64,000 nucleotides of DNA from Planctomycetota bacterium (GTDB lineage Bacteria > Planctomycetota > UBA8108 > UBA1146 > JAJFFE01), in NCBI GenBank assembly GCA_021776775.1, contig JAJFFE010000316.1, forward strand, positions 617 to 64,616. Reading direction: 5' to 3'. The position numbers and the translations under genes are program-made. The notes under the pieces are model-generated. The model was not told the origin of the DNA. It did no database searches and was given only the letters and a program-made list of their open reading frames with translations. Positions within the stretch are counted from its first letter, which is position 1, and each line of letters begins with the position of its first letter. Shown piece after piece: positions 11,984-42,465 of the stretch.

Positions 11984-12823
11984 TCAGCGACTCAGGCTCG
12001 GAAGCATCCAGGTGGGCGAGTGTTCGTGATGAGTCACTCCCGCGACTCCGGTGCTGACAAGGGCAGAGTCGATCCCGGCCGCGTTGGCGCCCGCGATGTC
12101 GGTACCGAGCTGATCACCGATCATGATGACGTTGCGCGTACCGACACGCGACAGAGCGGACTCGAAGATTGGCGCTCCCGGTTTGCCGAGGTGCGTGAAA
12201 CGCCACTCGGCTTTGGGATAGCGTGTCTCGAGCGCCGCTTCCAAGAGCAGCGCGATTCCACCCGCCGTGAACCCGAACGAGCCTTCGGCTCGCGGATAGA
12301 TGACGTCTGGGTTCGGGAGCAGCAGGTGCACCGTGTCGCCGCGATCGAGCCTTCGGTATAGCGCGCTCAACGTGTCATCGAGGCTGTCGATGAACGAGTA
12401 GCCCTTCGCGCCGCACGGGATCACCACGTCGAACTCGGCTTGCGGTGACGGGGCGACGATCGTGGCGCCGAGTGACTCGACGAACGAAACCGCGCTCGGG
12501 CCGCCGAGCACCAGTGCACGGGGATTCGTCAAGCCGTGGTCGCTAAAGTGCTCGCCGATCAACGATCCCGAGCTGATGACGCGTTCGACAGGGATGGGAA
12601 TGCCGTACCCGGCGTATCGTTCTGAGCACTCTTGCGGAGAACGTGACGCGTCGTTGGTCAGGATGTAGTACGGCCGATCGTACGACTCCAAATGCTCGAT
12701 GAGAGCGTCGGCTCCCGGGATGGGGCCGTCGTCGTGGACTAGTACGCCGTATGCGTCGAAGAAGATCGCTTCGTAGCGATCGAGGATCTCACTCATCGAA
12801 ATGGTCGGAGTGTCGTGCGTCAT
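11984..12823 (-). CDS. HAD-superfamily hydrolase, subfamily IIA (NagD/sugar-phosphate phosphatase-like)
   Basis: N-terminal FFDAYGVL (DxDG-type motif I), ILTNDAS (motif II) and C-terminal IGDQLGTDIAGANAAG (motif IV). Confidence 0.8.
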   Translation of the reverse strand: MTHDTPTISMSEILDRYEAIFFDAYGVLVHDDGPIPGADALIEHLESYDRPYYILTNDASRSPQECSERYAGYGIPIPVERVISSGSLIGEHFSDHGLTNPRALVLGGPSAVSFVESLGATIVAPSPQAEFDVVIPCGAKGYSFIDSLDDTLSALYRRLDRGDTVHLLLPNPDVIYPRAEGSFGFTAGGIALLLEAALETRYPKAEWRFTHLGKPGAPIFESALSRVGTRNVIMIGDQLGTDIAGANAAGIDSALVSTGVAGVTHHEHSPTWMLPSLSR

Positions 12824-13923
12824 AGTTCACTTTCGATGAGTTTGGCCAACAGCGCCGCGCTTCGCGGCCAGCGGTAACGGTCGATTCGATCCTGGCGCCG
12901 CAGATCCAACGCTGCGCGTTGATCTTCGTCGGTCAACAGCGTCTCCAGCCCGCGCGCGATCGACGCGGGTTGTAGTGGATCGCAGTACAGAACGCTATCG
13001 CCCAACACCTCGGGCAGGCTCGACCCGTCTGAAACCAGGCAGACCGTTCCGCACGCCAACGCTTCCAACGGCGGGAGCCCGAACCCTTCGTAGAGCGAAG
13101 GGTAGAGGAACGCGCGCGCCGACGTGTACAGCGCGGCTAGTGTCTCGTCATCGACGTCTTGCAGTTCGACGATGTCTTCTGAGCCGCGAACGCCGTCATG
13201 AGCGAAGATCGCTCCGCCGCCTCCGACGACGACGAGCTTGTGTCGCGACCGGAGGTCGTGACCGAGCAGTCGCCACGCTTGCACGCTACCGGCCACGTTC
13301 TTCCGAGGATTGCCGCCCCCCATTGTCAGCACGTACTCGCCGAGTTCGGTGACGGCCGGGGTGGGGGCACGCGGACTCCAGAACGGATCGACTCCGCACG
13401 GCACGACCGAGACGGTCTCTCGGTCGGCGATGCCGAATCGGTCGAGTTCTTCTCGGCTGAACTCGCTGTCCGTGATGACTCGACGGACGCGCCGCGCGAG
13501 GCGCGGCCACGTCAGGCGGGTGTAAGTCCGAAACGGCCACGAGAACCAGTCGTTGCTCGCGAACGGTGAAGCGTCGTGCAGGGTTAACAGTTGGTTGGCG
13601 AGGACCAGCGGTCCCATGTTGCACGGCGACCAGAGTAGATCGATCGAGTGCCGGCGACAGAGGACCGGCAGTTTCATCTGTACCCAAGCCGGCAGCGGCA
13701 GCGAGGAGTTGTCGCGCACGACGTGGTCGGCGATCGACTCCGACGGCGCCACGCCCGGGGCGAGGATCACCGTTTCGAAGGAGCGATCATCGAGGTCGGT
13801 CAAGGCGCGAGTCAGTTCGCGGGCGTAGCGCTGCACTCCGGTTTGTCGCTGCGCGAGGAAGCTACCGTTGATCCCGAGGCGGCGCGCTCGGCGAGCCTTT
13901 GGCTGTGTCACGAACGAACCCAT
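12820..13923 (-). CDS. Glycosyltransferase family 4 (GT-B, group 1)
   Basis: C-terminal EGFGLPPLEALACGTVCLVSDGSSLPEV motif. 4-nt overlap with the HAD gene. Confidence 0.85.
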   Translation of the reverse strand: MGSFVTQPKARRARRLGINGSFLAQRQTGVQRYARELTRALTDLDDRSFETVILAPGVAPSESIADHVVRDNSSLPLPAWVQMKLPVLCRRHSIDLLWSPCNMGPLVLANQLLTLHDASPFASNDWFSWPFRTYTRLTWPRLARRVRRVITDSEFSREELDRFGIADRETVSVVPCGVDPFWSPRAPTPAVTELGEYVLTMGGGNPRKNVAGSVQAWRLLGHDLRSRHKLVVVGGGGAIFAHDGVRGSEDIVELQDVDDETLAALYTSARAFLYPSLYEGFGLPPLEALACGTVCLVSDGSSLPEVLGDSVLYCDPLQPASIARGLETLLTDEDQRAALDLRRQDRIDRYRWPRSAALLAKLIESEL

Positions 13924-15638
13924 CCGAGTTCCTCGGCGGGGTAGCAGAACGAGGTACCGGTCAGTATTCCGTCGCAGACGACGTCGAGTCCCCGGCTCGA
14001 TCCCGGCTCGAGTTCGGCGAGTGATCCCACCGCCGGTCGGTAAGGCGGGTCGCCCGCGGTCGCTTCCATGAACTCGATCGGAATCATCCGGCGGAAGAAG
14101 ATGTGGTACGCGTAGCGCCGTGCCCGTTCGAGCCGCTCCTCGTCGAGCGGGTCGAGCGGAAGCTGCGTCAGAAGTTCGGCGTACTCTTCACGGCTGGCGG
14201 CGTCGTACGTAAACCCTTTGCCTCGAACCCACGCTTCGCCGGCGACGATGACCGGTTTGCCGGTGGCCGCCAACTCGACACCGGTCTTGGTTCCGTAGAT
14301 GAGCGCGGCGTTGCATTGATCGAGTAGCGCGTAGGTGCTGACTTCGCTCTCCGGCGGAACAATGCTCACGTTCGCGGGCAGGACTGGGAATGCGCGTTCG
14401 ACTTCGTCGACCACTCGTTGTCGTGACGGCAGCGTGCCACGGATCTCGGCGGGGTGGACGCGAATGACCAGGTGCAAGTCGGGGCGTGACGCGAAGTGAT
14501 CAATCGTTTCGAGGACCCAGTGCATCATGGACTCGAACGCGTTGGCCGCGTAGTGCAGCTGCGCATCCCAGATGACGTTTGTGAGCAGACCGATCACCGG
14601 TTTGTCGAGCGGGATCTTCGCTTCGCGGGTGATCGACTCGAGCGCTTCGCGCGGGCGATTGTGAAACCAGATCCAATCCTCGGTGCCCCGGCGTCGGCTG
14701 TCGAGGTAGGTGAGCAGCGCGTCACGTTCTTCGTCGCCGAACGGGATCGACTCCCACTCCGACGTCGGCTCGTCGAGGAGCGTGTGGTGATACGTATCGT
14801 CGTGGCTGAAGATGAAGCACTGCTTGCGATAGGCCGGCGTCCAATTCACGACGCGCAACCCGACGGCTCGGGCGACCGCTCCGATGATTCCCTGCGGCAC
14901 GTAGATCCCGTGGTGGAACGCGGTCGCCGTGTAGTCGTGTTCGGCGAAGAGTCGGCGGCTCACGGTGGCGGTGGTGAGCGCCGCGCGAAAGTAGCGTCGC
15001 AGGACCGCGTCGCCGGTCGGCTCCGATTCCAGATCTCCGCGGGCGAAGAACCGTAACGCGCCAGCGAGTGCGTGCTCTCCGGTGGGAACGCCGTCGAGTT
15101 GGTGGGCGCGGATTTGTTCCACTGTGAGGTCTCGAGCGAGCGCGGTGTGCTGGCCGAGTTCTTCCGGCGTGATCCAATCGCTGTAACGGTGGACGCGGAA
15201 TCCGAGTTCTTCGAAGTAGCGTTGGCCGGGTTTGAAGCAGCCGCCGCAAAGGTCGGCTTGCGGCCCGTGCTGGGCGAACGACGCCGGGTCGGCATGGGCT
15301 CTTACTTCGCACCGTTGGCACGCGTCGAGGATTCCGTCGCAAAGGAGCACGTCGACGTCCGCGCCGCGCAGCGTGAGCGCCATCCCGAGCACGCTTTCGA
15401 GCGTCGTCCCCGCCCAGTATCCACCGAGGCTGGTGGCGAGGAGTATGCGAGGACTGGGCGGGTTGGATGGTCCGGGAGCGCGCTGCGCGCACGATTGCCA
15501 CTTATCCCAATCGGGGCCGAGCAGCGCCGACCACCGGGGGTAGGCCGAGGTCCGGCCGCGGTACCAGCGAACCAGCCGGCGCAGTGTGCGAAACCGTCGT
15601 AACGTCTCGCGCACGTTCACGCTCCGTTCGGGGGGCAA
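13908..15638 (-). CDS. GT-B fold glycosyltransferase-like protein, possibly KpsS/KpsC (Capsule_synth) family ulosonic-acid transferase
   Basis: 576 aa. Rossmann-like halves: RILLATSLGGYWAGTTLESVLGMALTLRGADVDVLL and KPVIGLLTNVIWDAQLHY...HLVIRVHP...ALIYGTKTGVELAATGKPVIVAG. The family call is tentative. Confidence 0.55.
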   Translation of the reverse strand: MPPERSVNVRETLRRFRTLRRLVRWYRGRTSAYPRWSALLGPDWDKWQSCAQRAPGPSNPPSPRILLATSLGGYWAGTTLESVLGMALTLRGADVDVLLCDGILDACQRCEVRAHADPASFAQHGPQADLCGGCFKPGQRYFEELGFRVHRYSDWITPEELGQHTALARDLTVEQIRAHQLDGVPTGEHALAGALRFFARGDLESEPTGDAVLRRYFRAALTTATVSRRLFAEHDYTATAFHHGIYVPQGIIGAVARAVGLRVVNWTPAYRKQCFIFSHDDTYHHTLLDEPTSEWESIPFGDEERDALLTYLDSRRRGTEDWIWFHNRPREALESITREAKIPLDKPVIGLLTNVIWDAQLHYAANAFESMMHWVLETIDHFASRPDLHLVIRVHPAEIRGTLPSRQRVVDEVERAFPVLPANVSIVPPESEVSTYALLDQCNAALIYGTKTGVELAATGKPVIVAGEAWVRGKGFTYDAASREEYAELLTQLPLDPLDEERLERARRYAYHIFFRRMIPIEFMEATAGDPPYRPAVGSLAELEPGSSRGLDVVCDGILTGTSFCYPAEELGWVRS

Positions 15639-15901
15639 CGAGGTTTCTCGAGCGGAGTTGCGTGCGGTTCACGTGCTCGAGTTGGGGACCGCATTCTCGG
15701 AATCGATGCGGAGGGTTGCAAGGCAAACAACGGTTCGTGAGAGAGCTCTGTTTTCTGGCGCAACCGTCCACTATCCCTTGCACATCCGTTCCCTCGATGT
15801 AGAGTGAAACTGCGCGTGGCATGCGTTCTAGCAAGTACTGATCTTGTTGAGACTTCAGTCGTGTTCCGCGAGCCTGCACTCACCAAATCCATTGCCATAA
15901 C

Positions 15902-16798
15902 TTGGGGTCGATCAAGCGCATGACGAGCAATCAGGGAGACTCTCCCACCACGGGCGAGGCTCGCACTCGCAGTGTGTCCGCGGACAAAGCCACCGGTCGT
16001 TGGGCCCTCGACGAACGCGTCGCGATGGTCACCGGGGCGTGCGGCAAGCTGGGTCCGATTTGGGTGCGCGCGCTTCTCGAGACCGGTGCCCGCGTCGCGG
16101 CGCTCGATCTCGCGTCGGCCGAAGCTTCCGGGCCGTACTCCGAACTCGCCGCTCACTATCCTGATCAGTTGCAACGTTTCGACGTCGACGTAACGTCACG
16201 CGATTCGTTGACCGAGGCTCGGGACGCAGTGGAAGAACGGTTCGGGCCGGTCTCGGTCGTGGTTAACAACGCGGGTATCGATCAACCGCCCGGAGCGCCG
16301 TCGCAGTCGTTTACCGTGGAAGACATTCCCGAGGACGTTTGCCGGCAAGTGCTCGAAGTGAACCTGATCGGGCTGTTTCTCACTACTCAGGTTTTTCTTC
16401 CGTCGATCAAACGGGCTGGCGGCGGATCGATCATCAACATCGGGTCGATCTACGGTCATGTCTCTCCCGACGTGCGGCTCTATTCTCACATCGACGTCGA
16501 CCCCCCGTTCTTGAAGCCGCCGATGTACGGCGCCTCGAAGGCGGGCGTCGACAGCTTGACGCGCTATCTGTCGACGCATCTCGCCGCGGACGGAATCCGG
16601 GTCAATTCGTTGGTTCCCGGTGGTGTTCTCGGTGGGCAAGACGACGAGTTCAAACGTAAGTTCTGCGATCGCGTCCCACTGCAGCGAATGGCGACCGCTG
16701 ACGATCTGGTCGGCCCGCTGCTGTTTCTGGCGTCGGACGCCTCTTCCTACGTGACTGGGCAATCGCTCCTGGTCGACGGAGGATTGTCCGTCTGGTGA
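15902..16798 (+). CDS. Short-chain dehydrogenase/reductase (SDR)
   Basis: TGxxxGxG (VTGACGKLG), NNAG and YGASK catalytic motifs. The start may be an internal Met. Confidence 0.85.
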   Translation: MGSIKRMTSNQGDSPTTGEARTRSVSADKATGRWALDERVAMVTGACGKLGPIWVRALLETGARVAALDLASAEASGPYSELAAHYPDQLQRFDVDVTSRDSLTEARDAVEERFGPVSVVVNNAGIDQPPGAPSQSFTVEDIPEDVCRQVLEVNLIGLFLTTQVFLPSIKRAGGGSIINIGSIYGHVSPDVRLYSHIDVDPPFLKPPMYGASKAGVDSLTRYLSTHLAADGIRVNSLVPGGVLGGQDDEFKRKFCDRVPLQRMATADDLVGPLLFLASDASSYVTGQSLLVDGGLSVW

Positions 16799-16886
16799 CA
16801 GTAGCTAGCTTTGAGTGACCGGCTGACTTTAGTTATCCTGAGGTACGCGTGCGCTGTTCGAGCGCCGTCGTGAAAGTAGCGAGGCG

Positions 16887-18359
16887 ATGAAAACGATCCC
16901 CAATTGGATCCGGAACCGTGAAGTGCCGGCCCGCGACGGCCGCACCATCGAGAAGCACGACCCCGCCACCGGCGAGGTGTTGAGCCTCGTGGCACGTAGT
17001 TCCGCCGACGATACCAAGGACGCCATCCAGGCGGCGCGAGATGCGTTTCCCGACTGGAGCACACGCACGCCCGTCGAGCGCGGTGAGATCCTCCGCCGAG
17101 TGGCGCAGATCATGGAAGAGCGTCGCGAAGAGATCGCCAGCATCGTCGCCAAGGAAACTGGCAAGTCGTTCAACGAAGGCTTCGGCGAAACCGGCGCGGC
17201 TATCGAGCAAGGCTACTTCGTCGCGGGCGAGGGTCGCCGGTTCTACGGTAAGACCACGACTAGCGCGGTGCCCGGCAAGATGGCCATGGTGTGGCGGCAG
17301 CCGGTCGGCATCGCTGGTTTGATCATCGCTGCGAACACGCCCATCGCCAACGTCGCGTGGAAAGCGTTCCCCGCCATGTTGTGCGGGAACGGCGTGATCA
17401 TGAAAGCGTCCGAGGACACTCCCGAGACCGCGTTCATCTTTGCTCAAATTTGCAAAGAAGCCGGCGTGCCCGACGGAGTCTTCAACGTGATCCAAGGACT
17501 CGGCGTGGAAGCGGGCGCTCCGCTGGTCGAGTCGCCACACGTCGACCTGGTGAGCTTCACCGGCTCGTGCGGGGTCGGCAAGTGGATCGCCGAGACGGCC
17601 GGAAAGCGACTGGCCAAGGTGTGCCTCGAATTGGGCGGCAAGAACCCGCTCGTGGTCGCGGACGACGCCGACCTCGACAAGGCGGTCGACGGCGCGTGCT
17701 CGGCGGCGTTCTCGAACGCTGGCCAACGGTGCGCGTCGGGTAGCCGGGTCATCGTGTTCGACGCCATCTATGACGCCTTCATGGAGAAGTTCACGGCGGC
17801 GACGGCCAAGCTCAAGGTCGGGACGTCGAACGACAGCTACCTCGGCGGGGTGATCAACGAGCGTCAGCTCATGAACATGATCGCTGCGGTACAGAAATCG
17901 GTGGCCGAAGGCGCCACGCTCGTCGTGGGCGGGGGACGCGTTACCGATCCCGAACTCGCCGGCGGCTACTTCATGCAGCCGACGATCTTGGCCGACGTCG
18001 ATCCCGAAGATGAGATTTCCCGAAGCGAGATCTTTGGCCCGATCACGTGTGTGTATCGGGTGAAGGGCTTCGACGAAGCGGTGGCCATGGCCAACGACAG
18101 TCCATTCGGGTTGACGTCGGCGATCTACACCCAAGACTTGGACCGCGCTATGGTCTTCGTGCAGCGCAGCAGTGCTGGCGTAGCCGCGGTCAACCACCCG
18201 ACGCACGGCAGTGAACCGCACATGCCGTTCGGCGGATTGCGAAACTCCGGCAACGGCACCCGCGAAGCGGGGGCCGAAGCACTCGATGTTTACTCAGAAC
18301 TCAAGACAGTGTACGTGAACACCGACCCCGCTCGCGCCGCGAGTGGCGGGTCCAACTAA
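16887..18359 (+). CDS. NAD(P)+-dependent aldehyde dehydrogenase
   Basis: ALDH signatures ELGGKNP and FSNAGQRCASGSRVIV. 490 aa. Confidence 0.9.
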   Translation: MKTIPNWIRNREVPARDGRTIEKHDPATGEVLSLVARSSADDTKDAIQAARDAFPDWSTRTPVERGEILRRVAQIMEERREEIASIVAKETGKSFNEGFGETGAAIEQGYFVAGEGRRFYGKTTTSAVPGKMAMVWRQPVGIAGLIIAANTPIANVAWKAFPAMLCGNGVIMKASEDTPETAFIFAQICKEAGVPDGVFNVIQGLGVEAGAPLVESPHVDLVSFTGSCGVGKWIAETAGKRLAKVCLELGGKNPLVVADDADLDKAVDGACSAAFSNAGQRCASGSRVIVFDAIYDAFMEKFTAATAKLKVGTSNDSYLGGVINERQLMNMIAAVQKSVAEGATLVVGGGRVTDPELAGGYFMQPTILADVDPEDEISRSEIFGPITCVYRVKGFDEAVAMANDSPFGLTSAIYTQDLDRAMVFVQRSSAGVAAVNHPTHGSEPHMPFGGLRNSGNGTREAGAEALDVYSELKTVYVNTDPARAASGGSN

Positions 18360-18411
18360 CGTGTGATCAATTTCGGCCGCCAAGGCGAGACAGCCAAGGA
18401 GAACCACAGGC

Positions 18412-19467
18412 ATGGCACGATCCCTTACGATCAACGGCAAGACGATCGACGACGACTCCCCGTGTTACGTCATCGCCGAAGTGGGTCACAACCACGGCGG
18501 CAAGCTCGAGACGTGCAAGGACCTCTTCCGTAAAGCGAAGGAGTCCGGGGCCAGCGCGGTGAAGCTGCAGAAGCGTCACAACAAGACGCTGTTCAGTCGC
18601 GAGGCGTACAACAGGCCGTATGACAACCCGAACAGTTACGGTGGCTCGTACGGCGAGCACCGCGAGTTCTTGGAGTTCGAACGCGCCGAGTACGAAGAGC
18701 TGATCCCGTTCTGCAAAGAACTGGGAATCGACTTCTTCTCGACCGCCTTCGACATCCGGAGCGCCGACTTCTTGGCCGAGCTCGACATGCCGGCGTACAA
18801 GATGGCGTCGGGGGACATTCGCAACACACCGCTCATTCGTCACGTGGCGAAGATCGGTAAGCCGATGATCATCTCGACCGGCGCCGCGACCCTCGACGAC
18901 GCGCGACGCGCGTTCGAAACGGCGGCCGAGCACAATACCCAGATTGCGCTGCTGCAGTGCACGGCAGGTTACCCGGCCGCGTTCGAAGAGCTCGATCTCG
19001 ACGTGATTCGCACGTACCGCGAACAGTTCCCGAACACCGTTTGCGGCTTGTCCGCGCACGACAACGGCATCGCCATGTCGCTGATCGCGTACGTCTTGGG
19101 TGCTCGCATTGTCGAGAAGCACTTCACGCTCAACCGAGCGATGAAGGGGACCGACCACGCGTTCAGTCTCGAACCGCTCGGTTTGCAGAAGATGGTGCGC
19201 GACCTCACGCGAGCGCGCGCGGCGATCGGCGACGGCGTGAAGAAGATCTACCCGTCGGAAGAGCCCGCGTTGGTGAAGATGGGCAAGCAGATCGTCGCGT
19301 CGACTGACCTTCGTGAAGGCGACGTCTTGAGCGCAGAGAACATCACCGTCCGTAGTCCGGGCGGCGAAGGTTTGATGCCATTCGAGTACGACAAGGTCCT
19401 CGGTATGAAGGCTCGTCGGGCGCTCGCGCAAGACACGCCGATTCGTCGTGAGGACTTGACGGGATGA
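18412..19467 (+). CDS. neuB: NeuB-family nonulosonic/ulosonic acid synthase (sialic acid synthase-like) with SAF domain
   Basis: YVIAEVGHNHGGKLETCKDLFRKAKESGASAVKLQKR N-terminal TIM-barrel motif. C-terminal SAF-like ITVRSPGGEGL. Confidence 0.85.
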   Translation: MARSLTINGKTIDDDSPCYVIAEVGHNHGGKLETCKDLFRKAKESGASAVKLQKRHNKTLFSREAYNRPYDNPNSYGGSYGEHREFLEFERAEYEELIPFCKELGIDFFSTAFDIRSADFLAELDMPAYKMASGDIRNTPLIRHVAKIGKPMIISTGAATLDDARRAFETAAEHNTQIALLQCTAGYPAAFEELDLDVIRTYREQFPNTVCGLSAHDNGIAMSLIAYVLGARIVEKHFTLNRAMKGTDHAFSLEPLGLQKMVRDLTRARAAIGDGVKKIYPSEEPALVKMGKQIVASTDLREGDVLSAENITVRSPGGEGLMPFEYDKVLGMKARRALAQDTPIRREDLTG

Positions 19468-20243
19468 TCGCCGGGGACGCGGACGCGAACCGCATGCGCG
19501 TGATCGGATTGATTCCGGCTCGGAGCGGATCGAAACGTGTCCCCAACAAGAACGTCCGCCGACTGGGCGAGCACCCGTTGCTCGCCTACACGATCGCGGC
19601 GGCGCAAGCGTCGGAGGTTTTCGACCGTGTGGTCGTCTCGACCGAAGACGAAGCGACCGCCGAGATCGCACGGCACTACGGGGCCGAGGTCCCGTTCCTT
19701 CGCCCGGCTGAGTTGGCCGCGGACTCCTCGACCGACATCGACTGGATCGAGCAGTTCCTGGCCGTGTTGGTCAAGCAGGGAGAGTGTCCCGAGGCGTACT
19801 CCATTCTGCGGCCGACCAGCCCGTTTCGCCTGCCGTCCACCATACACCGAGCGTGGAATGCGTTTCGCGCGGCCGACGGTGTCGACTCGTTGCGCGCGGT
19901 CGAACCGGTCAAGCAGCACCCCGGCAAGATGTGGGTGGTGCGCGGTCAGCGACTGTTGCCGCTGCTCCCCTTCGGCCCCCCTGAGCAACCGTGGCACTCG
20001 AGTCCGACGCAATCGCTGCCGCAGGTGTACGTGCAGAACGCCAGTCTCGAGATTTCGTGGACTCGCCTCGCGCTCGAGCAGCGATCCATCGCCGGAGAAA
20101 CCATCCTTCCCTTCGTGACTGACGAGTGGGAGGGATTCGATATCAACGACCCCGAAGACTTCGAGCGGGCGGAGCGCATCGTCGCGGCCGGTACCGTCGA
20201 GATCCCCGAGATCAACGTCAACGCGTACGATCTCGCGAACTGA
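19464..20243 (+). CDS. neuA: Acylneuraminate (CMP-nonulosonate) cytidylyltransferase
   Basis: IPARSGSKRVPNKN motif of the CTP_transf_3 family. 4-nt overlap with neuB. Confidence 0.85.
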   Translation: MIAGDADANRMRVIGLIPARSGSKRVPNKNVRRLGEHPLLAYTIAAAQASEVFDRVVVSTEDEATAEIARHYGAEVPFLRPAELAADSSTDIDWIEQFLAVLVKQGECPEAYSILRPTSPFRLPSTIHRAWNAFRAADGVDSLRAVEPVKQHPGKMWVVRGQRLLPLLPFGPPEQPWHSSPTQSLPQVYVQNASLEISWTRLALEQRSIAGETILPFVTDEWEGFDINDPEDFERAERIVAAGTVEIPEINVNAYDLAN

Positions 20244-20261
20244 AAACCCAGGAGCGTTCCG

Positions 20262-22157
20262 ATGGCTGAGTTACTGTTTGCCCCGAAGTCCGAGTTCGAT
20301 CGCGTCCTTGCCTCTACTGACAAGCTCGGTCGCGTGCGCGCGTTCTCCGCGCTCGCTCGACTCAATACCATGAGCATGATCAAGCAAGCCGGCTCGGGTC
20401 ACATCGGCACGAGCTTCAGCTGTCTCGAGCTGGTCTCCTGGATTCACCTCGAAGGAATGCGTCGCTGCGACAACCCCGCCGACGGCTTCCGCGACATCGC
20501 GTTCTCGTCGAAGGGGCACGACGCTCCCGCGCTCTACGCCGTCTTGACCGGTCTTGGGTTGCTCGACTTCGATCTCGTGCACAAGCTGCGTCGGATCGAC
20601 GGACTGCCGGGTCACCCGGACGTGTCGACGCCGCACGTCTTGACCAACACCGGATCGCTGGGCATGGGCATTTCGAAAGCGCGCGGCATGTTGCACGCGG
20701 CGCGTCTCGACGGTCGCGACGACCACGCGTTCGTGGTCACCGGTGACGGCGAACTTCAAGAGGGACAGTTCTGGGAGTCACTGCAGCCGACGGTCAACCT
20801 CGGGGTGTCGGACATCACCGTGGTCATCGACCACAACAAGATTCAGTCGGACACCTGGGTCGAGCGGGTGAGCGATCTCGGCGATCTCGAGCGCAAACTC
20901 GAGAGCTACGGTTGGCGGGTCAGCCGCATCGACGGGCACGACGTGACGGCCATCGACGCGGCGCTCTCGGTGCGAGACGATCGGCCCCACATTGTGATCG
21001 CCGACACCATCAAGGGGCATGGCGTTTCGTTCATGCAGTCGACCGAGTTCCCGGACGACGGCAAGTTCTACGGTTATCACTCGGGGGCGCCGTCCGATGA
21101 AGACTACGCCGCCGGTCTCGAAGAGCTACTGGCGACCGCCAACGACGCGTTGTCCGCGATCGGGCTCGATGAGTTGTCGGTCAAGCGCGTGCCGATGCCG
21201 AGCAAGGTCGCGCCGCCGCCCACTGCGCAGAAGCTCGTCGGTGCGTACGGACGCGCACTCGTCGAACAGGCGACCAAGAACAAAGACATTGTCGCCCTCG
21301 ACGCTGACTTGGTGCTCGACACCGGACTCACCGAATTCGTCGAGCGTTTCCCGGACCGCTTCATCGAGTGCGGTATCGCGGAAATGGACATGGTCTCGCA
21401 AGCGGGCGGACTCGCACTTCGCGGCAAGCTGCCGGTGGTGCACTCATTCGCGTGTTTCCTGAGCACCCGTCCCAACGAACAGATCTACAACAACGCGACC
21501 GAACGGACCAAGATCGTCTACGCCGGATCGCTCGCCGGCGTCGTGCCCGGCGGACCGGGCCACTCGCACCAGTGCGTGCGGGACATCGCAGCACTGTCGG
21601 GAACGCCCGGCTTCTTCCTGGTAGAGCCGGCCACGGAAGCGGAGGTCACCAAGGTGGTCGACTTCTGTCTGAACCGCACCGAGGAGAGCTCTTACATTCG
21701 CCTCGTCAGCATCCCGTGCGACGTCCCGTTCTCAGTGCAGGACGTTCCTCTGGTGGAAGGGCAAGGCAGCGCCATTCGTGACGGCGCCGACGCGATCCTC
21801 TTTTCATACGGACCGGTGGCATTGAGCGAAGCGTGGCGTGCCGCGGAGAAGCTCGACGCAATGGGGGTCGCGCTGCGCATCGTCAACCAGCCGTGGCTCG
21901 ACCGCGTCGACAACGAGTGGCTGGCCAAAGAAGTCGGCGGGTACTCGAAGATCGTCACCGTCGATAACCACTACATCGAAGGCGGCCAAGGCAACATGCT
22001 AGCCGCGGCGATCGCTAGCTTCGGTGAGAAGAAGCAAGTGCACCGCATCGGCCTGACCGAGATCCCGGCCTGCGGAACCAACGACGAAGTGTTGAAGCAT
22101 CACCGACTCGATGCAGAGAGCCTGGTCGAAGACATCTTCGCGTTCGTGCGCAGCTAG
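20262..22157 (+). CDS. Transketolase-family TPP enzyme
   Basis: The region SGHIGTSFS...SSKGHDAPALYAVLTGLG...LPGHPDV...TGSLGMGISKARGM...VVTGDGELQEG aligns with the TktA TPP-binding region. 631 aa, single polypeptide. Confidence 0.8.
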   Translation: MAELLFAPKSEFDRVLASTDKLGRVRAFSALARLNTMSMIKQAGSGHIGTSFSCLELVSWIHLEGMRRCDNPADGFRDIAFSSKGHDAPALYAVLTGLGLLDFDLVHKLRRIDGLPGHPDVSTPHVLTNTGSLGMGISKARGMLHAARLDGRDDHAFVVTGDGELQEGQFWESLQPTVNLGVSDITVVIDHNKIQSDTWVERVSDLGDLERKLESYGWRVSRIDGHDVTAIDAALSVRDDRPHIVIADTIKGHGVSFMQSTEFPDDGKFYGYHSGAPSDEDYAAGLEELLATANDALSAIGLDELSVKRVPMPSKVAPPPTAQKLVGAYGRALVEQATKNKDIVALDADLVLDTGLTEFVERFPDRFIECGIAEMDMVSQAGGLALRGKLPVVHSFACFLSTRPNEQIYNNATERTKIVYAGSLAGVVPGGPGHSHQCVRDIAALSGTPGFFLVEPATEAEVTKVVDFCLNRTEESSYIRLVSIPCDVPFSVQDVPLVEGQGSAIRDGADAILFSYGPVALSEAWRAAEKLDAMGVALRIVNQPWLDRVDNEWLAKEVGGYSKIVTVDNHYIEGGQGNMLAAAIASFGEKKQVHRIGLTEIPACGTNDEVLKHHRLDAESLVEDIFAFVRS

Positions 22158-22571: not shown

Positions 22572-23348
22572 ATGAAATTCGCTGTTCTTGCAATCGTGAT
22601 CCTTGGTCGAGTCGGTCATGTCACGGGCGCGACACTGTCGGTTCCGACGGACTTCCCGACGATACAATCCGCGATATCTGTCGCAGTGTCAGGCGATACG
22701 ATCGAAGTCGCGTCGGGGACCTATAACGAGACAATCGAACTCGAAGGCAAGGATCTCACGCTCGTCGGCTTGTCCGGGCCCCAAGATACGTGGATTGTTG
22801 GCGACCTAACTTCAACGGTCGTCGCTGCAACTCTCGGAGAGAACTTCGAACTGCGCGGGCTCACAATTGCATACGGAGGCAGTCCCCCCCCCGGTCCAGG
22901 GGGTGGGATTCATATCGTCAGCGGTACCGGCGTTATCGTGGACTGCATCTTCCGAGACAATGTTGCCTGGGAGGGCGGCGCCATCTTCGCGGACGACTCC
23001 GAACTCTATGTCTCTCAAACGGTCTTCGCAAACAACTCGTCTCTTCGAGGTGGTGGGATCTACAGTCTCGGCGGTTCGTTGAATTTAACCCAGTGTGAAT
23101 TCGACAGCAACACGGGCTGGAGCTTTGGCGGGGGCTTGTTCTCGTCTGGAAACGCGGTGGTCGCGGAATGCGTGTTTCGCAACAACGGCTCTGAGTCGGG
23201 AGCTGGTATCAACCTTTGCTGTGGGAGCCCCGGCCCTGTGATTCTTGAACTCTCCAACACAATTTTCGACTCGAACATCGCCGGAATCGGCGGTGCGGTC
23301 TCCCTCGACCAAGCGCAGAGGTCCTGCCCCGGGGTCGTTTTGAGATGA
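22572..23348 (+). CDS. Secreted right-handed parallel beta-helix repeat protein
   Basis: Signal peptide MKFAVLAIVILGRVGHVTGA. Repeated G-rich beta-helix rungs (IHIVSGTGVIVDCIFRDN, GGGIYSLGGSLNLTQCEFDSN, NAVVAECVFRNN). RBS AAAGGAGGAG. Confidence 0.75.
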   Translation: MKFAVLAIVILGRVGHVTGATLSVPTDFPTIQSAISVAVSGDTIEVASGTYNETIELEGKDLTLVGLSGPQDTWIVGDLTSTVVAATLGENFELRGLTIAYGGSPPPGPGGGIHIVSGTGVIVDCIFRDNVAWEGGAIFADDSELYVSQTVFANNSSLRGGGIYSLGGSLNLTQCEFDSNTGWSFGGGLFSSGNAVVAECVFRNNGSESGAGINLCCGSPGPVILELSNTIFDSNIAGIGGAVSLDQAQRSCPGVVLR

Positions 23349-23573
23349 TCGACTCGGACGTTCCTATTCTTCGAGTACCGGCAGTGTGTGAGTTGAGGAT
23401 GCCACCCGTGAGGCGGATGAACGAGTCCAAAACTCGAACTCGAGTCCGCTCTGGGCCCCATCTTGTGTCCACGAGGCGCAGATGGCCACGAGGCTCCCAG
23501 GCGGTGCTCTGTCGAGCACCACTTGGGAGCCTCTAGGCTGGCTGAGGCGAAGATTGTCGTCGACATTCGCAGA

Positions 23574-24548
23574 TTACGGGTCGTCGGTCAGTAGCTCACT
23601 CCAGATGCACTCGCCCCAGGGAGTTCGATCGAAGCCGATCCGGAAGTGCATGACCCAAGTACCGACCGGAAAGGTGACGTCCTTCGTGCCAGCACGCACC
23701 TGGTTGAGGACGGAACGGTACCGTTGGTTGCGACGTCGACGCCACTCGAGCATCGAGATGCGCAGTTGCGTATTCTTGCAGGCTACGTGAGGTACTCGCT
23801 CGAAGAGCGGAGGGTCCTGCGTCGGGCTCGCCGTCAGGGATTGACGGAGGATCTTCTTTCGACCAGCGAAACTTTTTCCGGCCGTAGCCATCTCTTCGCA
23901 TTTGTCCTGTTCGCGACGGTTGTGCTCCTCCGACATGCGCTGTCGAAGCTCTTCTTGCGAGCAATCCATTACCTTCGGAATGGCGAAGGTGACGATGACG
24001 TACTCAGGAAGGCCTTCGAAGCTGTAGAAGAGCTGAGGGCGTTTGATCCGCAGCGTCAAGCGTCCCATCTGGCTCGGGAGGATACAGACGCCCGGCCACT
24101 TCTTCGCATGAGAGACGAGTTCGGCCTGCACCGCTTGAAGTGAGATATAGCAGCCGTGGTCAATGACGTCCTCGGCGAACGGGGCGACGAGGACACAGTT
24201 GACTCCTTCAGGGTCGAGGAGGTTGCCTCGTCGACCTCGAATACAGTTCGTCGATCGACTCAAGAGGCTGAAGAAGCGAGTGTTGTACTCCTGAAGTCGA
24301 TCACCTTCGACATCGGTCAGCAAACTGTGACCATGGTTCGACAGAAGAGACGCGAGATGGTGAACGACGCCCGTGGTGCCTTCGGCATAGCCGAGTAGGT
24401 AGAGAAAGTTCTCGTTGATGTCCTCGTCGGGACGAAACCAGTACTGCCCCGTGGTCGTACGGAACGTGAGTTTGTGGATCGAGCCGGGCGGACTGATGAC
24501 GGGTGGGGTAACCACGAGAGACGCCTCCTTGTGAAGGCGCCATTGCAT
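23574..24548 (-). CDS. Hypothetical protein (lower-GC islet)
   Basis: 324-aa ORF with no recognisable motif. Local GC is roughly 57% against ~65% elsewhere, with AT-rich codons used. Confidence 0.5.
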   Translation of the reverse strand: MQWRLHKEASLVVTPPVISPPGSIHKLTFRTTTGQYWFRPDEDINENFLYLLGYAEGTTGVVHHLASLLSNHGHSLLTDVEGDRLQEYNTRFFSLLSRSTNCIRGRRGNLLDPEGVNCVLVAPFAEDVIDHGCYISLQAVQAELVSHAKKWPGVCILPSQMGRLTLRIKRPQLFYSFEGLPEYVIVTFAIPKVMDCSQEELRQRMSEEHNRREQDKCEEMATAGKSFAGRKKILRQSLTASPTQDPPLFERVPHVACKNTQLRISMLEWRRRRNQRYRSVLNQVRAGTKDVTFPVGTWVMHFRIGFDRTPWGECIWSELLTDDP

Positions 24549-24821
24549 GCGGCGCGCCAGGACCCTCGGAGGCGTTGAGATCTAGCGCAACGCGCGGCGA
24601 TTGGAATGAACGCAGGTGGGAAGAGCGCATGATTCGAGTCTGGACTTCGGTTTAGGCGACTCGATACGGTTCGATCGTCCAATTGCGGACGGGTCAGGTC
24701 GGTGGGACATCGCGCGTACCGGCCACGTGACCTGAGAAGACCCGGGGGCGGGGCTGGCGTAGCCACACCCGCGCAACGAACCGAGTCTCCCCGTTACCGA
24801 GGCTTCGCACGCAGACGGGAC

Positions 24822-25319
24822 CTATAACCACATTCGGTGTAAGCCAGCCGCACGGCGCGCGTCGGCCATTTGACCACGATGCATATACCAGTGGTCGGCA
24901 ACAAACTGTAGGCAGAGGCGATACGTGCCGAACGTATCCTCGAAGCCTTCGGGTGTATTGGCGCTAGCTTCGTCGAGGTCATCCTCGGACAATGAGTCGA
25001 GGCGTGCCGTGGTCCACTCGCGCATCTCGCGACACGCCGAAAGGACTTCGTCGAACGGCGGGTAGTCGGTCGCTTCCCCAGTCGTGTCGGATCCGTCGAA
25101 GACGCTCTTCCACTCCGCTAGCGGATTCGACTCGCCCAGCATGAACTCCCGAATGACGAGCGCTTCGATGTACGCCAAATGTCCGAGCACCCAGATCGTA
25201 TGGCCGCCGCCGTTCGGAGTCGGAAACACCACGCCGTGGTCACGCATGTCCTCGACTTTGGCGAGCACTCGCTCGGTGCTCTTCTTCAAGTTGTCACGTA
25301 TGAGATCAATCGACTGCAT
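24822..25319 (-). CDS. DinB/YfiT-like (DinB_2) four-helix-bundle metal-binding protein
   Basis: VLGHLAYIEALV and HWYMHRGQ histidine motifs. Confidence 0.8.
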   Translation of the reverse strand: MQSIDLIRDNLKKSTERVLAKVEDMRDHGVVFPTPNGGGHTIWVLGHLAYIEALVIREFMLGESNPLAEWKSVFDGSDTTGEATDYPPFDEVLSACREMREWTTARLDSLSEDDLDEASANTPEGFEDTFGTYRLCLQFVADHWYMHRGQMADARRAAGLHRMWL

Positions 25320-25331
25320 GGTTCCTCGGAT

Positions 25332-25958
25332 CTATCCCTCGTCACGTGCGAGTAACTCAGCGATCTTCCGCTTCAGGTTGGTGCGCGCTCGCTCTTCGCA
25401 TCGTTCGCCGAGCAGCTCCGTGTTGTAGATTCGCGTTCGTTCCAAGAAGCTCGTCAGTATTCGTGCGCGCCCGGCCCGGTACTCCGACTCGGGAACCCAA
25501 TGGTACTCGCGCCGGATGGCCGCGTCGTACGTCTCGAACACGTCGGCCGGCGTGCCCAGAATTGCGAGATCGATATCGAGCATGATCTGCGCATCGATAT
25601 CAAGGGCTCGGTGCGCCTTCGTCGCGAGAATCAACGTCGCGACTCGGTCCACGACCTCTGCGGGGGCGCCTACCGACTCGAGGAATCGACGGGCCCAATC
25701 CGCACTACACTCCTCGCTGTCGGACCGTCGGGTGTCGTACACGGCGTCGTGAAACCAGAACGCGACTTCTATCTCGGCTGGCCGCACGGCTGACGCTCGA
25801 AGGGTATCGAGCCGGGACAAGCATTCAGACACGTGCATGTCGGTGTGGTAGTGCCGTTCGGGTGATGTGTACGCGGTCTTCAGGTCGTCGAAGATCTTCG
25901 ACGTCGGCGGCGCACCAATCGTGAGCAGGCTGCGTTCTAGGTTTTCGCGAGTGAACAT
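25332..25958 (-). CDS. HD-superfamily metal-dependent phosphohydrolase-like protein (COG4339-like)
   Basis: HYHTDMHVSECL ... FWFHDAVYD (H...HD). Likely start at MFTRENLERS. The ORF track extends to 26006. Confidence 0.7.
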   Translation of the reverse strand: MFTRENLERSLLTIGAPPTSKIFDDLKTAYTSPERHYHTDMHVSECLSRLDTLRASAVRPAEIEVAFWFHDAVYDTRRSDSEECSADWARRFLESVGAPAEVVDRVATLILATKAHRALDIDAQIMLDIDLAILGTPADVFETYDAAIRREYHWVPESEYRAGRARILTSFLERTRIYNTELLGERCEERARTNLKRKIAELLARDEG

Positions 25959-26060
25959 TACTGTCCTCGGTTGAGGTCGGCGATCCGGTCGTCGCCGTTC
26001 TTGCAAGCGTAGACGGCATAGTGCGGGATCACTTATCGAGGGCGCCCGCGAAGGGCCGGG

Positions 26061-26306
26061 TCACGTCAGCGTCCAAACCAGCGCTCGGCCGGGCCCTTTG
26101 ACTCGCGCCAGCCCGATGTCGTTCTCGAGTCGCTTGGTCCACGTCGGGCAAGGTCGCTCGTACGGAAGGTCCGCGCGCTCACGGAGTTCGGACCAGGTTA
26201 GCCCGTTTCCGCTGCGTCGAAGCTCGCTTTGGATCGTCGCCTTGAACTCTTCGTATCGCACCAGTCTTCTCTCGGTGGATTCGTCAGGGCGTCCGCCCTG
26301 GTTCAT
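26061..26306 (-). CDS. Small hypothetical protein (81 aa)
   Basis: Intact ORF in an otherwise gene-dense stretch. No motif recognised. Confidence 0.35.
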   Translation of the reverse strand: MNQGGRPDESTERRLVRYEEFKATIQSELRRSGNGLTWSELRERADLPYERPCPTWTKRLENDIGLARVKGPGRALVWTLT

Positions 26307-26578
26307 CCCGGGGCAGAGTCGCGTGTTACAGACGACAGATGGTAACCGCGTACGCCGTTCGGAGACAGATTCGAGGGTCGGGTGCGCGCCCCTCGCGGGC
26401 TATCGATTCAGAATCTTGGGAATTTGTGTGGGGTGTGGGGTCGCTGGTGCCACTACGGCGTGAAGGTCGCGGAGACCGGTGACGACGCCCATGCGGCTGC
26501 GACGCCCGTGCGGCCAAGACAATCATGCGGCGACTCCCGCTTCGGCGGCTGGCCGCACCCCGCCATTGGAGGCTGACC

Positions 26579-28244: not shown

Positions 28245-28276
28245 TTGGAGGCTCCTAGTCTTCGTCGCTCGACGAC

Positions 28277-42461: not shown

Positions 42462-42465
42462 TCAG

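Follow-up and report, generated by a model that had tools for sequence, protein, structure and literature searches.

The canonical pathways to Neu5Ac, pseudaminic acid and legionaminic acid (NeuC/NeuB/NeuA, PseBCHGIF and LegBCHGIF) couple a SAF-domain synthase of the NeuB family to a NeuA/PseF-like cytidylyltransferase. The locus described here contains the same pair, but lacks the hydrolysing 2-epimerase, 4,6-dehydratase, aminotransferase and N-acetyltransferase of those pathways. It also resembles the Kdn route of Bacteroides thetaiotaomicron (Kdn-9-P synthase, a HAD-type Kdn-9-P phosphatase and CMP-Kdn synthetase) and the animal Neu5Ac-9-P route: a NeuB-family synthase with what is probably a phosphorylated sugar as its substrate, then a HAD phosphatase and CMP activation, with no need for amino-sugar genes. 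These routes, however, have no counterparts of the SDR, the aldehyde dehydrogenase (ALDH) and the transketolase (TKT)-like enzyme found here, and in the present module the type of phosphatase differs among lineages.

Two further systems bear on these additional enzymes. In Shewanella the KdnB dehydrogenase and the KdnA aminotransferase act on the terminal carbon of Kdo to give Kdo8N: an oxidoreductase tailors the distal end of a ulosonic acid before incorporation, as may happen here, but the enzyme families differ (KdnB is a metal-dependent alcohol dehydrogenase, KdnA an aminotransferase), and there is neither C–C cleavage nor a second carboxylate. The second is the conversion of gluconate to L-tartrate, with 5-keto-gluconate and tartaric semialdehyde as intermediates, by gluconate 5-dehydrogenase (an SDR), transketolase and succinate-semialdehyde dehydrogenase (an ALDH) (PMC13527115, PMC12016104). 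The three enzyme classes are common to both, as, on the reading proposed below, would be a coherent order, the shortening by two carbons and the dicarboxylic end; yet the tartrate route starts from a free C6 acid and depends on housekeeping enzymes that are promiscuous, or on engineered ones (PMC13527115, PMC12016104), whereas in the module the three genes stand with NeuB and NeuA in an operon that is dedicated and conserved, the TKT has a remodelled substrate channel and the substrate would be a 3-deoxy-ulosonic acid.

Genes in the window (the whole stretch of 64,000 nucleotides analysed, from a member of the Planctomycetota) were identified from the list of open reading frames combined with Pfam and NCBIfam model searches. 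All members of the SDR–ALDH–NeuB–NeuA–TKT set that a preliminary description had placed at 15902-22157 were recovered, as were the HAD phosphatase, glycosyltransferase and KpsS-like protein it had assigned to the same region at 11984-15638 (Table 1). The translational coupling claimed for NeuB and NeuA is borne out by an ATGA overlap.

Table 1. Features of the two divergent units; positions are those of the window.
Feature	Position	Strand	Basis
HAD-IIA family phosphatase, 279 aa	11984..12823	(-)	Pfam Hydrolase_6 + Hydrolase_like; TIGR01460 HAD-SF-IIA 85 bits
GT4 glycosyltransferase, 367 aa	12820..13923	(-)	Pfam Glycos_transf_1 + Glyco_transf_4
KpsC/KpsS-like GT-B protein, 576 aa	13908..15638	(-)	PF05159 Capsule_synth 29.5 bits
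Intergenic stretch between the two divergent units	15639..15919		Position only
Classical SDR	15902..16798	(+)	adh_short_C2 151 bits; likely start at in-frame ATG 15920
Aldehyde dehydrogenase (ALDH), NAD(P)+, 490 aa	16887..18359	(+)	Aldedh 514 bits
NeuB-family PEP-condensing synthase, 351 aa	18412..19467	(+)	NeuB domain 262 bits + SAF domain
NeuA-like cytidylyltransferase, 259 aa	19464..20243	(+)	CTP_transf_3; closest model PseF
Transketolase (TKT)-like ThDP enzyme, 631 aa	20262..22157	(+)	N, pyrimidine-binding and C domains in a single chain

The intergenic stretch separates the HAD-IIA/GT4/KpsC-like unit from the SDR–ALDH–NeuB–NeuA–TKT unit and, judged by its position, presumably holds divergent promoters; a scan of it for the sigma-70 consensus returned no match. 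The GT4 frame overlaps both adjacent genes by a few bases, and the KpsC-like protein is 568 aa long in public data as against 576 aa for the open reading frame. A genuine KdsB is encoded at 58266-59219 of the same window, so that NeuA is an additional activating enzyme.

In order to assess conservation, 81 loci containing NeuB orthologues (one per species) were searched with the window proteins by tblastn. These loci come from Acidobacteriota, Planctomycetota, Methylomirabilota, Gemmatimonadota and Chloroflexota, together with Nitrospirales, Actinobacteria, Cyanobacteria and alpha- and delta-proteobacteria. Fifty-two, from about ten phyla, are full loci, flanked by 8 kb or more on either side, and in 41 of them the SDR, ALDH, NeuA and TKT genes all lie beside NeuB and on its strand. 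The SDR is the most constant partner (51/52), followed by NeuA (47), the ALDH (45), the TKT (44) and the KpsC-like protein (39). The SDR, ALDH and TKT genes are always on the strand of NeuB, and NeuA is so in 47 of 48 matches. Since most loci repeat both the partners and their orientation, the gene neighbourhood is not due to chance. We came across no published account of this module.

The arrangement is not invariable. Seven full loci have no ALDH nearby (loci without it, among all 81, include L008, L009, L011, L013, L014, L057 and L070), and the Moorena module comes in two pieces, NeuB–SDR–ALDH–GT and NeuA–TKT–HAD, a grouping that does not obviously follow the order of the steps proposed below. 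The TKT and HAD genes adjoin in most loci and remain together in Moorena. In Kallotenue the module is embedded in a Wzx/Wzy locus that is complete and includes an initiating phosphoglycosyltransferase. The HAD, glycosyltransferase and KpsC-like genes of the neighbouring unit are counted in the module, as the preliminary description had it, but GT4 is not a conserved core member, because related loci hold only distant GT4 relatives (∼30% identity); it probably builds the acceptor glycan.

Public annotation labels the proteins N-acetylneuraminate synthase, sialic acid synthase and transketolase, names that would fit an ordinary Neu5Ac, legionaminic, pseudaminic or Kdn cluster lying beside housekeeping SDR, ALDH and transketolase genes. 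That 41 of the 52 loci, each standing for one species and together spread over many phyla, have the same neighbours contradicts this, and the properties of the enzymes speak against it. NeuB scores 295 bits on TIGR03569 (cut-off 400) and 241 bits on PseI (cut-off 340); it is 30–34% identical to NmNeuB, CjPseI and BsSpsE, and its clade stands at the same 30–34% to solved synthases (the Kdn-9-P synthase not among them), whereas the median identity to clade members from other phyla is 60%. NeuA comes closest to PseF, at 135 bits against a cut-off of 206, and retains the motifs PARxGSKRxxxKN and LRPTSPFR. Both proteins fall under every equivalog cut-off. No equivalent of NeuC, PseB, PseG, PseH or LegG was present among the window ORFs scanned, in accordance with the earlier claim that the usual partners are absent; the sole aminotransferase and dehydratase lie ∼30 kb away and score far under the PseC, LegC, PseB and LegB cut-offs.

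The catalytic, PEP-binding and Mn-binding residues of NeuB are conserved, but 54 of 59 clade members carry Ser in place of Arg314 of NmNeuB and 56 of 59 carry Lys in place of Phe288, with Ala at the position of Asn184. In bacterial synthases Arg314 is fully conserved and touches the N-acetyl carbonyl of ManNAc, whereas the mammalian 9-phosphate synthase lacks this N-acetyl-contacting Arg (PMC11339185), as does the module NeuB. NeuB belongs to a distinct clade, and its product is probably an omega-phosphorylated 3-deoxy-ulosonate. The view of the gene set as dedicated and non-canonical therefore stands, and an ordinary cluster of any of the four kinds is highly improbable.

The phosphatases across the loci are of three types, HAD-IA (39), KdsC/YrbI-like and directly after NeuB (16), and HAD-IIA (2), and no locus holds two types together. 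Three mutually exclusive forms argue for a phosphorylated ulosonate as the product of NeuB. The KdsC-like copy of Kallotenue papyrolyticum reaches 102 bits with TIGR01670, whose cut-off is 107, and 85 bits with the Kdn-9-P phosphatase model, a further likeness to the Kdn route that extends to the 16 loci with such an enzyme after NeuB. A homologue of the HAD-IIA protein (44–45% identity) follows the TKT gene in another Planctomycetota locus, L007. We propose that the HAD-IIA enzyme of the window strips the phosphate from the ulosonate made by NeuB; dephosphorylation followed by CMP activation, as first suggested, is well supported.

The role first suggested for the transketolase fares differently. 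The TKT-like protein is not a housekeeping copy: it lies beside NeuB in 44 of the full loci and scores 114 bits on the canonical bacterial transketolase model (cut-off 682). It has the short, human-type architecture, and the closest solved structure is human TKT (202 bits). The ThDP-binding and catalytic residues are retained: equivalents of human H37, H77, H110, G123, D155, N185, H258 and E366 are kept in 43–46 of 46 orthologues, the shortfalls being alignment gaps and one Asn at H110. The substrate-phosphate site, in contrast, is lost: R318 is replaced by Val or Ile, S345 by Asp (46/46), H416 by Leu (41/46) and R474 by Ser (40/46); all four canonical phosphate-binding residues are replaced in 46/46 orthologues. 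The stereo-determining Asp (D424) is Pro in all 46. Clade-wide replacement of the sugar-phosphate site makes it unlikely, as far as residues can tell, that this enzyme supplies an aldose phosphate, although phosphate could be bound via other residues.

This bears directly on the pathway of the preliminary description, in which transketolase provides an unusual aldose phosphate for NeuB to condense with PEP, the HAD enzyme and NeuA follow, and the SDR and ALDH would have to prepare or trim the precursor. The phosphorylated NeuB product, the phosphatase step and the adjoining TKT and HAD genes are in its favour; but with the phosphate-binding residues gone (one of them to an invariant Asp), with common aldose phosphates already available from the housekeeping transketolase, and with the SDR and ALDH left without a coherent role, it is unlikely as a whole.

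We favour, tentatively, a different reading: that the region is a self-contained, widespread module that makes and transfers an unusual CMP-activated 3-deoxy-ulosonic acid by a seven-step route. NeuB would condense PEP with a common sugar phosphate to give a 3-deoxy-ulosonate omega-phosphate; since the conserved module has no substrate-preparing gene, the simplest guess is a hexose 6-phosphate. The HAD phosphatase would then remove the phosphate, and the NAD+-type SDR would oxidise the penultimate hydroxyl to a ketone, creating a terminal HOCH2-CO-CHOH- group that resembles a transketolase donor. From this the TKT-like ThDP enzyme is proposed to split off a two-carbon ketol unit, leaving an aldehyde from which the ALDH would make a second carboxylate; starting with a C9 precursor, the outcome would be a 3-deoxy-hept-2-ulosaric (Dha-like) acid. 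NeuA would form the CMP-sugar, and the KpsC-like GT-B protein would move it onto a surface glycan made by neighbouring glycosyltransferases. The substrate of NeuB, the order SDR, TKT, ALDH and the position oxidised, hence also the structure of the product, are what we infer, with the conversion of gluconate to tartrate serving as chemical precedent. Such putative tailoring of a dephosphorylated ulosonic acid suits the anatomy of the locus better than aldose-phosphate supply. We know of no glycans with such a sugar from bacteria carrying the module. The fate of the ThDP-bound two-carbon unit is not explained by the route.

Motif-level catalytic competence extends to the SDR and ALDH. The former has TGxxGxLG, NNAG, the Ser and YxxxK, and an Asp after beta-2 suggests that its cofactor is probably NAD+; the latter conserves ELGGKNP and GQRCASGSR. 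Their similarities are generic, and every specific model stays under cut-off: the best for the SDR include D-mannonate oxidoreductase and gluconate 5-dehydrogenase, no better than FabG, and those for the ALDH are 2,5-dioxovalerate/alpha-ketoglutaric semialdehyde dehydrogenases (432 bits, cut-off 770). Because the ALDH is missing near some loci it may be accessory, for instance by oxidising the glycolaldehyde that is set free; the pathway would then have another product.

The loci without ALDH are also accounted for if tailoring precedes condensation. The SDR and TKT-like enzyme would start from a hexonic or hexuronic acid and, by way of the 5-keto compound, arrive at a four-carbon aldehyde-acid (a tetruronate), from which NeuB and PEP would directly make 3-deoxy-heptulosaric acid, with the ALDH serving only to clear glycolaldehyde. 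The formation of tartaric semialdehyde from 5-keto-gluconate by transketolase is precedent here too, and a substrate carboxylate could be held by Lys289 and Lys/Arg314, which are specific to this NeuB clade. A conserved phosphatase, in three interchangeable types including one KdsC/Kdn-9-P-like after NeuB, would then have no substrate, and we regard this order of events as decidedly improbable.

Alternatively, the TKT-like enzyme could add rather than remove carbon. Transketolases are reversible, ThDP enzymes do build branched sugars (YerE, in yersiniose biosynthesis) and the donor-binding histidines are conserved; transfer of a two-carbon ketol to an aldehyde or keto group newly formed on the ulosonic acid would yield a C10–C11 or branched acidic sugar. 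Extension would leave no aldehyde, and hence no role for the ALDH; classical SDRs do not usually turn primary alcohols into aldehydes; and a donor would still be required, yet the site that would bind the phosphate of the usual donors is gone. Addition is accordingly quite unlikely.

For the last step of the favoured seven-step route, the candidate transferase of the CMP-activated sugar, on the strength of its predicted fold, is the KpsC-like protein. It resembles KpsC/KpsS (GT107) and WbbB (GT99), the beta-Kdo transferases of Kdo capsule and glycolipid systems: PF05159 Capsule_synth is matched by 15 of 15 orthologues tested, the gene adjoins that of a CMP-ulosonate synthetase in the module, and a confident AlphaFold2 model (pLDDT 90.3, pTM 0.91) has as its best Foldseek matches in the PDB the KpsC beta-Kdo transferases 6MGB, 6MGC, 8FUX and 6MGD (E 2e-8 to 3e-7), with the WbbB beta-Kdo transferase ranked lower. 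In contrast to Kdo systems, the donor sugar would come from a NeuB-type rather than a KdsA-type enzyme. Identity to the known beta-Kdo transferases is 12–14%, with TM-scores of ∼0.5, and the protein differs from them in an extra region containing four invariant cysteines.

Every gene named in the preliminary description was confirmed by ORF listing together with Pfam and NCBIfam scans: genes for an SDR, an ALDH, NeuB, NeuA and a three-domain transketolase-like ThDP protein (hereafter TKT-like), and a divergent unit of a HAD-IIA phosphatase, a GT4 and a Capsule_synth-like GT-B protein (hereafter KpsC-like). Together these form the module considered here. The reported absence of the usual partners also holds, with no NeuC, PseB, PseG, PseH or LegG among the window ORFs scanned. 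No Pse genes were found in the module or the window: a DegT protein scores 209 against the PseC cut-off of 423, and a dehydratase 45 against the PseB cut-off of 408. A scan for promoter and terminator consensus sequences returned nothing informative.

Features of the window, in order of position
Feature	Position	Strand	Basis or remark
963-aa protein with N-terminal ECF-type sigma factor	4398-7289	-	
831-aa Ser/Thr protein kinase, C-terminal TPR array	9389-11884	-	directly downstream of the HAD-GT4-KpsC-like unit
HAD-IIA phosphatase	11984-12823	-	ORF listing, Pfam/NCBIfam
GT4	12820-13923	-	ORF listing, Pfam/NCBIfam
KpsC-like (Capsule_synth-like) protein, 576 aa	13908-15638	-	ORF listing, Pfam/NCBIfam
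SDR	15902-16798	+	likely start ATG 15920; ORF listing, Pfam/NCBIfam
ALDH	16887-18359	+	ORF listing, Pfam/NCBIfam
NeuB with SAF domain	18412-19467	+	ORF listing, Pfam/NCBIfam
NeuA-like cytidylyltransferase	19464-20243	+	ATGA overlap with NeuB
TKT-like protein, three domains, 631 aa	20262-22157	+	ORF listing, Pfam/NCBIfam
258-aa protein, polymorphic-outer-membrane-protein / beta-helix repeats	22572-23348	+	just downstream of TKT
Segment between TKT and the counterparts of L001 genes	22572-38600		
899-aa PhoD-like protein	28277-30976	-	
1750-aa protein, 15 Ig-like repeats and dockerin-like end	31740-36992	-	
Apparent counterparts of L001 genes	38608-44081		~16 kb beyond TKT
Second glycan patch	51199-61040		~30 kb from the module
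GT4 (second patch)	51199-52347	-	
DegT-type aminotransferase, generic (second patch)	52344-53456	-	
WcaJ-type undecaprenyl-phosphate glucose phosphotransferase (second patch)	53609-55177	-	above model cut-off
NAD-dependent epimerase/dehydratase, generic (second patch)	55279-56514	-	
GT4 (second patch)	57238-58269	+	
KdsB (second patch)	58266-59219	+	genuine, scores above cut-offs; adjoins pyrG
CTP synthase (second patch)	59292-61040	+	

Scanning one genome per species yielded 203 relatives of the window NeuB, the best 80 of which are 58–71% identical to it. The hosts of these 80 are Acidobacteriota (mostly Vicinamibacterales), Planctomycetota, Methylomirabilota, Gemmatimonadota, Chloroflexota, Nitrospirales and Actinobacteria, together with Cyanobacteria (Moorena) and alpha- and delta-proteobacteria (Tistlia consotensis, Rhodocista pekingensis); the closest relatives are Planctomycetota MAGs. 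Among species-level genomes the module occurs in 81, belonging to phyla of soil, groundwater and marine settings, and its homologues in public metagenomes number in the thousands.

Co-occurrence was counted from tblastn hits with the window proteins at the 52 loci having at least 8 kb on either side, because crude clustering of ORFs was contaminated by long antisense ORFs in high-GC genomes. Beside NeuB we find an SDR in 51 of the 52 loci, NeuA in 47, ALDH in 45, TKT in 44 and the KpsC-like protein in 39. SDR, ALDH, NeuA and TKT are all present in 41, a recurrence of the same partners on which we reject a chance neighbourhood. By the same tblastn hits SDR, ALDH and TKT are always co-directional with NeuB, as is NeuA in 47 of 48 hits. 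The commonest order is NeuB-SDR-ALDH-NeuA-TKT-phosphatase-KpsC-like protein; the window and its closest relatives have SDR-ALDH-NeuB-NeuA-TKT. Lineages differ in gene order, and selection therefore targets the gene set rather than an inherited block. Moorena has the module in two separate pieces, NeuB-SDR-ALDH together with the KpsC-like gene and, elsewhere, NeuA-TKT-HAD; in the cultured Chloroflexi Kallotenue papyrolyticum it is embedded in a complete locus that also encodes Wzx, Wzy, glycosyltransferases and an initiating phosphoglycosyltransferase. A catabolic sugar-acid cluster was also considered, and was rejected on the grounds that the NeuB family consists of synthases and that NeuA and glycosyltransferases are present.

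Automatic annotation labels the module as a sialic acid synthase plus a transketolase, and an ordinary sialic-type cluster is one rival reading. The window NeuB matches the superfamily model (PF03102, 262 bits) and falls below the cut-offs of the specific families: 294.6 bits against 399.65 for the N-acetylneuraminate synthase equivalog TIGR03569 (296 bits for the Kallotenue orthologue) and 241 against 340 for PseI (TIGR03586). It is 30–34% identical to N. meningitidis NeuB, C. jejuni PseI and B. subtilis SpsE, and a median of 60% identical to members of its own clade.

The active-site comparison proposed in the preliminary description has a two-part outcome. The catalytic core is conserved: E25, K53, Q55, K129, S132, S154, Y186, S213, H215, E234, H236 and D247 are kept in 58–59 of the 59 aligned clade sequences, so that the metal ligands (His215/His236), the PEP-binding Lys and Ser residues and Glu25/Glu234 of the NeuB superfamily are all in place. 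The N-acetyl-binding Arg314 of the SAF (antifreeze-like) domain (NmNeuB numbering) is replaced by Ser in the window NeuB and in 54 of 59 clade members, where the local motif reads [KR]SPG in place of RPG; Lys takes the place of Phe288 in 56 of 59, and Ala that of Asn184 in 54 of 59. This Arg, which NmNeuB cannot do without, touches the carbonyl of the substrate's N-acetyl group and is invariant among bacterial synthases (PMC11339185). With catalytic, metal and PEP residues kept and Arg314 replaced, the window NeuB is predicted to be a competent PEP-condensing synthase with an altered sugar pocket, one compatible with a phosphorylated, possibly non-acetamido substrate. Because the conserved module has no gene that would prepare a special aldose, the economical guess is that this substrate would be a sugar phosphate of central metabolism. 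The text seen of a large NeuB phylogeny (PMC8208679), which assigns all homologues to NeuB, LegI or PseI, makes no mention of this clade.

Besides the window, 56 of 82 related loci have a HAD gene; the window's own HAD-IIA protein is 44–45% identical to a homologue that directly follows TKT in a second Planctomycetota locus. A HAD-IA protein follows TKT in 39 other loci, and in 16 a KdsC/YrbI-like phosphatase of 150–176 aa stands immediately after NeuB; these types are mutually exclusive, no locus having two. For the Kallotenue copy of the KdsC/YrbI type, the KdsC/YrbI model gives 102 bits, against a cut-off of 107, and the Bacteroides Kdn-9-phosphatase model gives 85. Members of the KdsC/YrbI-type family act on Kdo-8-P and Kdn-9-P. 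Three interchangeable phosphatases, one of them from this family, argue that NeuB releases a phosphorylated ulosonate, and bear out the dephosphorylation step envisaged from the window alone. As in Kdn-9-P and Neu5Ac-9-P synthase pathways, a dedicated phosphatase is encoded with the synthase. The module resembles a Kdn-type pathway of synthase, phosphatase and CMP-synthetase that is linked to a KpsC-like transferase, with three conserved tailoring enzymes in addition.

Among solved structures, the TKT-like protein stands closest to human transketolase (202 bits) and to a split bacterial transketolase; it reaches only 114 bits on the canonical bacterial model TIGR00232 (cut-off 682) and 376 on its best model, NF004559 (cut-off 488). 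The module falls outside the NeuB and PseI equivalogs and outside canonical transketolase. The 114 bits, together with the position beside NeuB in 44 of 52 loci, led us to reject a housekeeping transketolase. The window protein was aligned with human TKT, E. coli TktA and 46 TKT-like orthologues.

Transketolase positions in 46 TKT-like orthologues (substrate-phosphate and acceptor roles are those we take from the human and yeast TKT structures)
Human TKT (yeast)	Role	State in the clade
H37, H77, H110, G123, D155, N185, H258, E366	ThDP, metal, catalysis	conserved, 43-46 of 46 (shortfalls are alignment gaps and one Asn at H110)
Q428 (His481)	catalysis	His in 46 of 46
R318 (R359)	substrate phosphate	V or I
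S345 (S386)	substrate phosphate	Asp in 46 of 46
H416 (H469)	substrate phosphate	Leu in 41 of 46
R474 (R528)	substrate phosphate	Ser in 40 of 46
D424 (D477)	reads acceptor C2 hydroxyl	Pro in 46 of 46

The GDG...N motif, the activating Glu and the catalytic histidines are kept. All five substrate residues are replaced in both the HMMER pairwise and the MAFFT alignments, and the local motif of the clade is GSLAGxxPGGPGHSHQ. In window numbering, the residues at the altered site are D353, L424, P432, H434 and S483. Judged by these residues, the protein should be a working ThDP enzyme with a transketolase fold that does not bind ordinary sugar phosphates. The rival in which TKT acts upstream of NeuB has its origin in the preliminary description, where the transketolase supplied NeuB with an aldose phosphate; an enzyme lacking the phosphate site counts against that role. 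In one TKT-like orthologue (P0350, 851 aa, 57% identical) a GNAT acetyltransferase domain forms part of the same chain, a hint that some variants of the pathway may include an acetylation step.

The SDR has the classical motifs, with an Asp after beta-2 that suggests NAD+ as cofactor. D-mannonate oxidoreductase and gluconate 5-dehydrogenase are among its best-scoring models; since the scores are below cut-off and no better than FabG, they give a weak hint of a link to sugar-acid dehydrogenases. Both catalytic motifs are present in the ALDH, which scores best, below cut-off, on 2,5-dioxovalerate dehydrogenase models. NeuA (PF02348, 72 bits) keeps the nucleotide-binding motifs, including the N-terminal PARxxSKxxxxKN, and is closest to the PseF model (135 bits, cut-off 206), with KdsB models at 47 or less; it belongs to the CMP-ulosonate synthetase family and scores below every equivalog cut-off within it.

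The KpsC-like protein matches PF05159, the model of the GT107 KpsC/KpsS beta-Kdo transferases, at 29.5 bits (threshold 20) over residues 355–483 only, and all 15 of 15 orthologues match it weakly (best E-value 1.8e-8). A profile search with the family against PDB sequences gave no useful match. An AlphaFold2 model built with 34 homologues (pLDDT 90.3, pTM 0.91) was compared by Foldseek: the top matches are the KpsC beta-Kdo transferases 6MGB, 6MGC, 8FUW, 8FUX and 6MGD (E 1.7e-8 to 3.3e-7, target-normalised TM-score 0.49–0.56), followed by generic GT-B proteins and then the WbbB beta-Kdo transferase. These fold matches point to a distant kinship with enzymes whose donor is a CMP-ulosonic acid. 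The family alignment shows an invariant RVHPAE motif and several invariant Asp, which may or may not correspond to the HP / QxxxKE motifs and the catalytic Asp nucleophile of KpsC or WbbB. Four cysteines in the N-terminal half are also invariant (C92, C99, C123 and C126 in the 568-aa form), which suggests a metal-binding insertion; we know of no mention of such an insertion for KpsC.

The need for a phosphatase, a TKT-like enzyme without a phosphate site and the known chemical logic of an SDR, a transketolase and an ALDH acting together lead to a proposed order of steps. In the precedent, gluconate 5-dehydrogenase yields 5-keto-gluconate, transketolase converts this to tartaric semialdehyde and a semialdehyde dehydrogenase produces tartrate (PMC13527115; PMC12016104). 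By analogy, NeuB would condense PEP with a hexose 6-phosphate, the phosphatase would free the terminal CH2OH and the SDR would oxidise the penultimate hydroxyl to give a ketol end; the TKT-like enzyme would then remove a two-carbon unit, the ALDH would make the second carboxylate, NeuA would activate the resulting 3-deoxy-hept-2-ulosaric acid and the KpsC-like enzyme would transfer it. The C7 product of a C9 precursor could still form a pyranose ring, which is why such a precursor is favoured. The order of the tailoring steps, the oxidised position and the identity of the product are all putative, and the stereochemistry need not be that of the D-lyxo isomer (Dha) of plants. It is possible, although we would sooner doubt it than assert it, that bacteria of many phyla make a CMP-activated, Dha-like dicarboxylic acid by using a dedicated ThDP-dependent enzyme to cut two carbons off a Kdn-type nonulosonic acid. 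The main weak points are that ALDH is absent nearby in 7 of the 52 full loci, that the two-carbon fragment has no assigned fate and that the SDR and ALDH similarities are generic. Two further rival readings are condensation by NeuB with a tetruronate, and chain extension in place of two-carbon removal.

Ulosonic acids (sialic, pseudaminic and legionaminic acids, Kdo and Kdn) are key surface sugars whose pathways are thought to be well catalogued. If the proposed route is correct, it would be, to our knowledge, the first C-C cleavage by a ThDP-dependent transketolase-like enzyme in nucleotide-sugar biosynthesis, and the first genetic route to an ulosaric acid. A new acidic sugar would add one more monosaccharide to bacterial glycobiology, account for some of the ulosonic-acid gene signal that is still unassigned in environmental bacteria and bring a new type of transketolase-like reaction, on a non-phosphorylated sugar acid. 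A full-text literature search found no paper describing this gene set or linking NeuB-family genes with transketolase, and the entries inspected on ulosaric acids were plant and algal papers, with no bacterial glycan paper among them. The activated form and origin of Dha in plant rhamnogalacturonan-II were described as unidentified in a 2012 review (PMC3355719); were the product a heptulosaric acid, the module would offer a template in the search for how plants and green algae make Dha. The module is widespread and well delimited, and cultured strains put it within reach of experiment: carriers include Kallotenue papyrolyticum, where the locus lies on JAGA01000003.1, Tistlia consotensis, Rhodocista pekingensis and Moorena producens, so the question is directly testable.

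Several neighbouring features are of note. The second glycan patch may be the source of an acceptor glycan, or else consist of unrelated LPS/EPS genes. By tblastn, the related loci show no conservation of the 831-aa kinase. In 19 loci (e.g. L002:8997-9962; also L011-L013, L016, L024 and L074) the module has beside it, upstream of or near NeuB, a protein of some 320 aa that neither Pfam nor NCBIfam matches; a methyltransferase often accompanies this protein, which is absent from the window. In L001, the closest relative (locus 12296-21056), a beta-helix protein also lies near the module, and an ABC transporter, a 227-aa protein, a cysteine-dioxygenase-like protein and an asparaginase follow TKT within about 3 kb. 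The intervening segment that separates TKT from their apparent counterparts in the window, and which holds the Ig-like repeat and PhoD-like proteins, looks like an insertion or synteny break relative to L001. Finally, in the 963-aa protein sigma-70 regions 2 and 4 are followed by CarboxypepD_reg, Big_1 and MG4-like extracytoplasmic domains: by its predicted domains, a sigma factor joined, unusually, to a large array of surface-type domains.
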